From NCBI GenBank assembly GCA_964016885.1, contig OZ024761.1, positions 22,258,001 through 22,322,000 on the forward strand: 64,000 bases of DNA, written 5' to 3'. This document shows positions 30,215 through 31,041 of this stretch, one piece after another (the first letter of the stretch is position 1; each line of letters opens with the position of its first letter). The position numbers and the translations under genes are program-made. This stretch comes from Eledone cirrhosa. Lineage: Eukaryota. The notes beneath the pieces are model-generated. The model made no database searches. It had not been told where the DNA came from and worked only from the letters and a program-made list of their open reading frames with translations.

Positions 30215-31041
30215 TATGTTCGCAGCCAATACACTCAAGTGTTCTTTAAAAATGTTATTTCAAGTTACTCCAGTACACTCAGCTGAGGAGTTAATCCTAC
30301 GATAGACTAGAGCCCTGTCCAGGGAGAGTCTTGTACTATGAGGCACTTAACGCCAACGAAAGCTTAAACTTTATATATACTAAATTTAGATTTAATTAAT
30401 ACATATATTATTACAAAATTCGATAGTTTGCGTCTTTTTATTTATTTAGAGTAAGATATACATTACCACCTTGAAGCAAGTATATTTACTTACATATAAA
30501 TTATTCTGTATATCTGTACAAAATACTAGTAGTTTCTCAATGGATATATAAATATAGAAACGGAATGACCGTGAGGTGACACTGGAAATATATCGTCTTA
30601 TCTCGCCTTCGTTCTGTTTCTATATATTTTTTTTTTAAATACATAAAATTCTACCTATAAGTCTGACTAATCTACTCAGTAGAATTGCGCTTTTGCGTGG
30701 CGTTCCGGGCTTCGCTGTCGTACTTCGGTATGGCATGACCACTCTATCGTGTCTGAAGTTCGAATCGTTGCGGGGTCGGCACGGGACTATTTTGCAGGCT
30801 GGCCTGCGTCCTGCAGCGTAGAGAGGGTTTCATTTTTGTTAAAAAATCTTACTAGAGTTATCTCCCTTTATTTGAATTACTTCCCTTTGTGGAACTCTTC
30901 TGTTTCTGTTGTCATTTCACTTTATTGGATTCAATCGGTAACATCGTTCTATTACACCGGGACTTTGTTAGAATCATTCTGGATATTTTACTCTTTGAAA
31001 GAGGTATGTAATGTTTTATTTGCCGTAAATACATTCTAAAC
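30215..31041 (+). repeat. Left arm of large inverted repeat
   Basis: Reverse complement of 33561-34390 with only a few substitutions and indels. ORFs 30749-31039 (+) and 33530-33730 (-) give the same peptide. Confidence 0.97.
30688..30837 (+). ncRNA. Candidate structured small RNA gene, copy 1 (Pol III-like signals)
   Basis: TATAA 30656-30660, A-box-like TGGCGTTCCGG 30698-30708, B box GTTCGAATC 30758-30766, T5 30833-30837, and the hairpin UGUCGUAC-UUCG-GUAUGGCA. It is a GC island in AT-rich DNA. Family not recognised. Confidence 0.4.

Follow-up and report, generated by a model that had tools for sequence, protein, structure and literature searches.

Organization of the locus

The window analyzed here is the whole 64,000-nt stretch of Eledone cirrhosa DNA (assembly GCA_964016885.1, contig OZ024761.1, positions 22,258,001 to 22,322,000 of the forward strand). 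Two copies of a short gene of predicted RNA polymerase III (Pol III) type face each other in it from the arms of an inverted duplication (Table 1), and two stretches further in from the closely similar arms are ~69% alike. The gene has 58% GC compared with 26% and 31% in its 300-nt flanks, in agreement with the GC-rich island described in the original prediction. The words on which that prediction was built were also read in the sequence, namely TATAAG, the A-box-like TGGCG(T/C)TCCGG, the B box GTTCGAATC and the T5 run, and the mirror copy that it reported was recovered on the reverse strand with five differing sites within the gene. Three DNA runs, all from a single sample, have contigs covering the locus; these runs may be the assembly’s own source and do not count as independent support.

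Table 1. Features of the inward-facing pair, with positions counted from the first letter of the window.
Feature	Position	Strand	Remarks
Left arm of inverted duplication, cassette with flanks	30215..31042	+	833 nt; matches 33560-34390 at 97.6%
Upstream 27-bp imperfect inverted repeat, part of family cassette	30556..30621	+	
TATA word ~30 nt before predicted start	30656..30661	+	Read in sequence
Copy A, predicted Pol III unit	30687..30837	+	151 nt to T5, ~107 nt if T4 at 30790-30793 stops; predicted start
T4 run at +5	30691..30694	+	Only one copy outside window pair has it this early (85 copies)
Apical domain, long stem closed by three-way junction; most conserved part of family	30695..30772	+	78 nt; folds alone into family structure
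A-box-like word, rebuilt by 13-nt deletion	30698..30708	+	Deletion private to window pair among aligned copies
UUCG hairpin, first half of putative insert in old anticodon loop	30716..30735	+	97.6% of cells paired
Second junction hairpin	30737..30753	+	4 pairs, 99.4% of cells paired; double changes absent
B box, putative remnant T loop	30758..30766	+	Read in sequence
“Sm-like” word, one-base expansion of ancestral T3, more likely an early terminator	30788..30794	+	Alignments
T5 terminator	30833..30837	+	Read in sequence
AT-rich spacer: decayed inner arms, (TA)n(GA)n run, no credible ORF	31043..33559	.	
Right arm of inverted duplication	33560..34390	-	Arm alignment
Copy B	33764..33916	-	TATA 33942-33947, B box 33837-33845, T5 33764-33768
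Upstream inverted repeat of copy B	33982..34047	-	

Within the family described below, the window pair is an atypical, weak member. Its core is of young type, its flanks are equally close to old and young copies, and its private 13-nt deletion lies between two near-repeats. The T4 run at +5 is joined by a second at about +104, making the proposed product of ~150 nt doubtful. In the in vitro assays reported in PMC3141230, runs of T4 and T5 were efficient stops for human Pol III. The product of the window pair would accordingly be short or scarce; likely there is little RNA, or an RNA cut down to ~107 nt. The second T4 run is the word that had been proposed as an Sm-like site; it is a T3 in old copies (AU3G word), is replaced or deleted in types 1 and 2, and is therefore not retained as an Sm site, the word not being conserved across the family.

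Size and subfamilies of the family

The window element had been described as present twice; it is one pair of a family of at least ~205 cassettes in the genome. A DNA search of the genome gave 186 candidates; 40 of them were scored, and all 40 matched. With a diverged copy as the query there were 251 candidates, again with 40 scored. The B box was covered by an exact 19-mer, which had 79 genome matches, and the 5' core by a 27-mer, which had 134 with up to 3 mismatches (reversed controls 0 in both cases); a 30-mer of the older form had 119, of which 100 were listed. The figure of ~205 is made up of the 134 young 5' core matches, 62 old-type places (from the 100 listed of 119) and 9 further places. 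Summed contig depth over the core was ~200x that of unique sequence, compared with tens of thousands x for a neighbouring repeat, both being rough values from one sample in which depth does not equal copy number.

Every cassette combines a TATA word, a B box and a T run with a hairpin located upstream. Two young subfamilies, type 1 (~165 nt) and type 2 (~150 nt), stand beside the window pair and an older group that is more variable, reaches ~190 nt and has many copies that carry deletions or are broken. TATAA is kept in 76 of 85 copies, a B box of the form GWTCRANNC in 79 and a first run of T>=4 at 140–200 nt in 78. Avoidance of internal T4 was not informative, with 86 of 91 copies lacking T4 but 91 of 91 lacking A4. 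The upstream inverted repeat occurs in 35 distinct versions among the aligned copies, and the plus strand folds better in only 21 of the 35, so that no strand is favoured; a microRNA precursor was rejected for this lack of strand preference. Six short words of this hairpin were absent from three of the supplementary files of PMC9699675.

A family covariance model was scored on vault, 7SK and tRNA loci and on the rest of the window, all of which remained at background (best other match E 0.11). Metagenome and viral contigs gave no match to one gapped family pattern, and a start-site motif search turned up unrelated satellites. A search of sequencing runs with the window’s atypical copy as query, which could miss other subfamilies, had no RNA run among the matches listed. 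No description of the family was found in the papers searched; this family of tRNA-derived Pol III-type genes is probably undescribed, although an entry among the Repbase, Dfam or SINEBase consensus sequences or in the 1994 octopus SINE paper may exist.

Probable descent from tRNA-Arg(UCG)

The sequence of the cassettes points to a likely descent from an arginine tRNA gene, tRNA-Arg(UCG), whose motif has 47 matches in the genome. In a test designed after the likeness had been noticed, with isotype and blocks chosen post hoc, family copies were aligned without gaps to tRNA-Arg(UCG) over three blocks (positions 1-36, 39-47 and 54-73). Seven of eight copies shared 37–40 of 65 letters, exceeding all 150 shuffles that kept the invariant tRNA positions (null ~30, sd 1.8). 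The window copy shared 36 of 65 letters, a value reached by 3 of 150 shuffles, its lower score being attributed to the 13-nt deletion. Free local alignment to tRNA-Arg(UCG) was weak (z 2.1–3.3 in 10 of 11 queries), and this tRNA ranked top in 8 of 11 queries among 12 tRNA sequence types only.

According to these blocks, 33–35 nt would have been inserted behind the anticodon, and the T stem would have lost its 5' strand. The family keeps the register and many letters of the three blocks but, unlike tRNA-Arg(UCG) of the same genome, has the anticodon-loop insert, lacks the T-stem 5' strand, has not kept the acceptor and carries a 60–90 nt 3' extension together with the TATA word. tRNA introns sit right after the anticodon; a search of the genome by one exact pattern for a tRNA-Arg(UCG) gene with both an intron and an intact T arm had no match. 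ARAGORN reported 0 tRNA genes in the window element, and a relaxed ARAGORN run gave noise only. Apart from the family, a cluster of >30 tRNA-Arg(UCG) genes was observed at C6:63.12-63.17 Mb.

Predicted RNA fold

A long stem capped by two hairpins was predicted by RNAalifold from 44 copies. The family fold with its 3' hairpin leaves 93.6% of cells paired, compared with 32–40% when slid and 67.2% for the ancestral cloverleaf (a value reached by 494 of 500 shuffles), the family structure having been derived from the same sequences used for testing. As modelled, the family would no longer fold as a tRNA and would fit a long stem with a three-way junction cap. Mean pairing probability in the apical helices is ~0.4–0.8 in three subfamilies and <=0.01 in the full-length window copies. 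Mean z on the gene strand is -2.0 to -2.5 in three subfamilies and the gene strand folds better in 36 of 44 copies, a preference that is clear in the young types and slight in the old (gene-strand z -2.0 vs -1.6 for the opposite strand).

The two window copies have fold z values of -0.61 and -0.52, with 55 and 51 of 200 shuffles folding as well. The RNA-level structure that had been read from these two copies is therefore not borne out by them, and the structure argument does not rest on the window alone; the structural signal comes from relatives of the window pair. Among the helices originally drawn, UGACC/GGUCG and GUUCCG/CGGGAC are absent from the family consensus fold, and the UUCG hairpin is real and kept across the family. 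Its UUCG loop is the young-subfamily state, old copies having UUAU, UUAA or UUAG, and the hairpin shows a U-A/C-G double change between subfamilies. Double changes occurred in 3 pairs only, which 217 of 500 shuffles equalled; of the 18 cells involved, 16 go back to one inherited U-A/C-G event. Each subfamily has a terminal stem of its own sequence that a shared alignment cannot score. A 71-nt mini-cloverleaf in the core was rejected: it suits type 1 and the window pair but breaks down in type 2 (41 of 56 cells) and in old copies (96 of 126 cells), and its pairing probability is <=0.12 outside the window.

Conservation and selection

In a tree of 85 of 91 copies, six truncated or rearranged ones being left out, the core showed 1.60 changes per site against 3.94 in the flanks, i.e. 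2.5 times fewer (0 of 10,000 permutations). Since copies were collected through the core, core conservation is inflated among old copies. The window copy is 97–98% identical to type 1 in the core and 61–82% in the flanks. Within the gene, paired sites had 1.54 changes per site vs 3.15 for unpaired sites, and transitions at Watson-Crick pairs kept the pair in 40 cases and broke it in 18 (p 0.003). Flank transitions were strand-symmetric (211 vs 228), and unpaired gene sites had no C>T excess (49 vs 45 G>A). Gene conversion, which is evident in the family, could also homogenise the core, and the evidence for selection on the RNA fold is moderate.

Mirror-pair layout and spread

The inward-facing layout of the window recurs across the genome. 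Among the 79 exact 19-mer matches, which represent the youngest type, 70 form 35 inward-facing pairs, 2.9–14.1 kb apart (median 7.0 kb), 3 neighbours face outward and no same-strand neighbours lie under 15 kb from each other. Old copies are also inward-paired, at 4 of the old-type regions examined, on contigs C12, C20 and C21. In 15 regions, chosen because they hold pairs, the palindrome arms are 84–98% alike, and the 15 pair interiors examined are AT-rich, 2–9 kb long and without a credible ORF. Spacers differ in length, and low-complexity repeats are nearly all that those of distant loci have in common. A type 2 gene is often found ~1.7 kb outside the type 1 gene on C23 and C25, where blocks of >10 kb with gene pairs have themselves been duplicated and inverted again.

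From 40 oriented copies, ~250 nt upstream and 200–300 nt downstream were found to be common, with edges that fade and are not sharp; in held-out copies, the flank motif was present on at least one side in 23 of 24 and on both sides in 14 of 24. No fixed transposon end was seen within the stretches examined, beyond which the duplicated blocks extend, and no target-site duplications around copies were recognised on inspection by eye only. The six largest contigs, C1-C6 (C1-C4 alone make up 1.62 of 3.0 Gb), hold none of the 79 exact matches and none of the 100 listed of 119 old-form matches. Because flanks are shared and no listed match lies on C1-C6, the family appears to have spread by DNA duplication and not by retroposition.

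Other features were noted at individual loci. Two near-identical old-type copies, C23:5207829 and C23:5607957, face each other 400 kb apart, which hints at a much larger inverted duplication. The palindrome axis at C20 ~24853100-24853700 is a GC-rich near-perfect hairpin of short repeats, other axes being AT-rich. At C25 ~16983300-16984600, ORF pieces resembling a Helitron helicase by eye lie 2–3 kb outside a gene pair, and the same region contains ORFs of 812 and 1218 codons.

Other RNA genes and repeats

An Rfam search of the window returned no known family (gathering score over the whole window, E<=10 on 30600-30900), and family copies gave one chance match only, with 15.6 bits against a cut-off of 51. 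A 7SK identity was rejected, there being no RF00100 match in the family; the single 7SK-like gene of the genome lies elsewhere, at C2:194684573-194684851 (45.1 bits), with a TATA-like word upstream. A tandem vault-RNA-like cluster at C3:221183987-221251257 has 14 matches over the Rfam cut-off in two alternating variants; a literature search on octopus vault RNA returned no description, and this cluster may itself be undescribed. A tRNA-like repeat is dispersed over contigs C1-C5 and C28; its copies have a single body, a common upstream flank and several different anticodons, and it looks like a mobile element with a tRNA mimic. In the window, copies of two abundant tRNA-derived SINE-like repeats lie at 7604, 35072, 35688, 50063, 59629 and 43146 and at 3807 and 59901, with no detectable family match beyond B-box-level likeness. 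The window also contains a 34-bp satellite (~22000-24320), an array of identical 100-bp units (~39230-40310) and a self-complementary AT array (~40470-41510).

Comparison with known systems

The closest kinds appear to be the rodent 4.5S RNAs and primate snaR, as analogues and not homologues. As described in PMC10137851, rodent 4.5SH and 4.5SI are lineage-restricted Pol III genes with A and B boxes and a TATA-like box at -31/-24; 4.5SI is tRNA-derived, and 4.5SH has a non-canonical A box and hundreds of copies in larger repeated units. The Eledone family resembles them in its internal boxes, upstream TATA-like box, T terminator and copies inside larger repeated units. In that account, however, 4.5SH units are tandem, whereas those of the Eledone family face each other as mirror pairs; an abundant SINE is linked to both 4.5S RNAs, whereas no such SINE was found for the Eledone family; and 4.5S expression is proven, whereas the Eledone family is known from genome sequence. 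A sequence relation to the 4.5S RNAs is not expected.

Primate snaR, according to PMC3045588 and PMC3337139, are structured Pol III RNA genes with short indels around the boxes and subfamilies, which spread by segmental duplication with their flanks and are uneven on chromosomes. Indels around the boxes, flanks duplicated along, uneven contig placement and subfamilies are also features of the Eledone family, which, unlike snaR, is likely derived from tRNA-Arg and has ~200 loci paired locus by locus. Helenus and Ajax, reported in PMC10886601 as LTR elements bearing a tRNA-like gene, 5-bp target-site duplications and primer-binding sites, share with the family the presence of a tRNA-like gene at each end of a larger unit; unlike in these elements, the Eledone arms are inverted, with no fixed ends seen in the stretches examined. 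Vault RNA (RF00006) has in common with the family Pol III boxes and a terminal stem, but the family has no RF00006 match and the vault matches of the genome form a separate tandem cluster.

Interpretation and alternative explanations

We give an even chance to the reading that these are tRNA-Arg(UCG)-derived cassettes, predicted to be transcribed by Pol III into a folded, protein-binding regulator RNA of 150–190 nt that is not a tRNA. In the proposed course of events, the anticodon loop of a tRNA gene would have grown by 33–35 nt, the T stem would have lost its 5' strand and the gene would have been extended at its 3' end; the A box would have decayed, a loss for which the TATA word likely compensates. 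The old D-arm and T-arm sequences would then pair into a long G-U-rich stem with a three-way junction cap, below which a 3' hairpin and a terminal stem would follow. An early fold-back inversion would have produced a pair, whole pairs would then have been segmentally duplicated, and the arms would be kept alike through gene conversion as old subfamilies decay and young ones expand on C22, C23, C25 and C8.

The family could instead be a functionless passenger, a tRNA relic in a palindromic block that duplicates for DNA-level reasons, with a core made uniform by gene conversion and little or no transcription; this is a minority view that carries appreciable weight. Copies do ride in blocks of at least 10 kb that are themselves duplicated and inverted, the fall in similarity of the window arms further in points to conversion, and many old copies are broken. 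Conversion alone would not predict that paired sites change half as often as unpaired sites of the same short gene, nor that transitions preserve pairs more often than they break them, and most copies retain the TATA word, B box and terminator. It is improbable that the family is a SINE or, as had been suggested, the gene from which a SINE arose. The layout of a tRNA-related head (degenerate A box and B box), an unrelated body and a T-run end is that of a SINE, and tRNA-Arg is a named source of mollusc SINE heads in PMC4758252. Many dispersed, decayed copies, which had been named as a mark of an ordinary SINE, are present, but as duplicated cassettes and not as retroposed bodies. The ~200 copies, compared with neighbouring repeats whose summed contig depth is several hundred times higher (a rough value from one sample), the promoter and downstream flanks that they carry, their absence from C1-C6 among the matches listed, and profiles of two SINE families (39 and 14 copies) without a match to the family have already largely refuted this reading.

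It is quite improbable that the family is a carrier of tRNA introns, from which tRNA splicing enzymes would excise the insert as a small structured, possibly circular, working RNA. The insert directly follows the anticodon within the most conserved part, and 86.8% of cells still allow an anticodon stem; its predicted pairing probability is, however, <=0.02, the broken acceptor and D stems have 50.7% and 70.1% of cells paired, no T stem is left, and the one exact pattern used found no intron-bearing relative with an intact T arm. A functional role of the pair as a unit, with read-through from the inward-facing genes yielding long double-stranded RNA for editing or small-RNA pathways, is highly unlikely. 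The layout has been kept in young and old subfamilies alike, but each gene ends in a T run of the kind that stops human Pol III in vitro (PMC3141230), the AT-rich spacers are full of more T runs, and they vary in length and share little between distant loci. The original prediction of a Pol III-type structured RNA gene holds at the family level, where promoter and terminator words are present and the core is conserved; none of its three named identities (vault RNA, Sm-class RNA and SINE source) does. In vault RNA the A-box region pairs with the B-box region. These regions also pair with each other in the family, and an AU3G word is present in old copies; it is nevertheless very improbable that the family is a diverged vault RNA paralogue or an Sm-class small nuclear RNA, with no Rfam match for the window or family copies, a separate vault cluster that the family model scores at background, and an Sm-like word lost in types 1 and 2.

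Returning to the regulator RNA, whether the family is a working RNA of the proposed kind is judged to be about evenly balanced. Even if it is expressed, its function as an abundant imperfect-duplex ligand for double-stranded-RNA-binding or translation proteins, by analogy with snaR, is put forward tentatively. Equally tentative is the wider proposal of an undescribed working class of octopod small RNA, in which a tRNA-Arg gene refolded around an anticodon-loop insert would be maintained in ~200 copies as self-repairing mirror pairs, with a role like that of BC1, 4.5S and snaR in mammals and possibly as a decoy for double-stranded-RNA proteins in an animal group whose heavy RNA editing is well known.

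Without any RNA the family would be a repeat to annotate and not a discovery. Lineage-specific Pol III RNAs derived from tRNA or 7SL are known mainly from mammals. The Eledone family would be an independent octopod case with old and young subfamilies in one genome, in which the steps from a tRNA gene to a refolded RNA are visible. Its inward-facing layout, kept through several rounds of duplication, would also provide a clean system for arm-to-arm gene conversion around Pol III genes.
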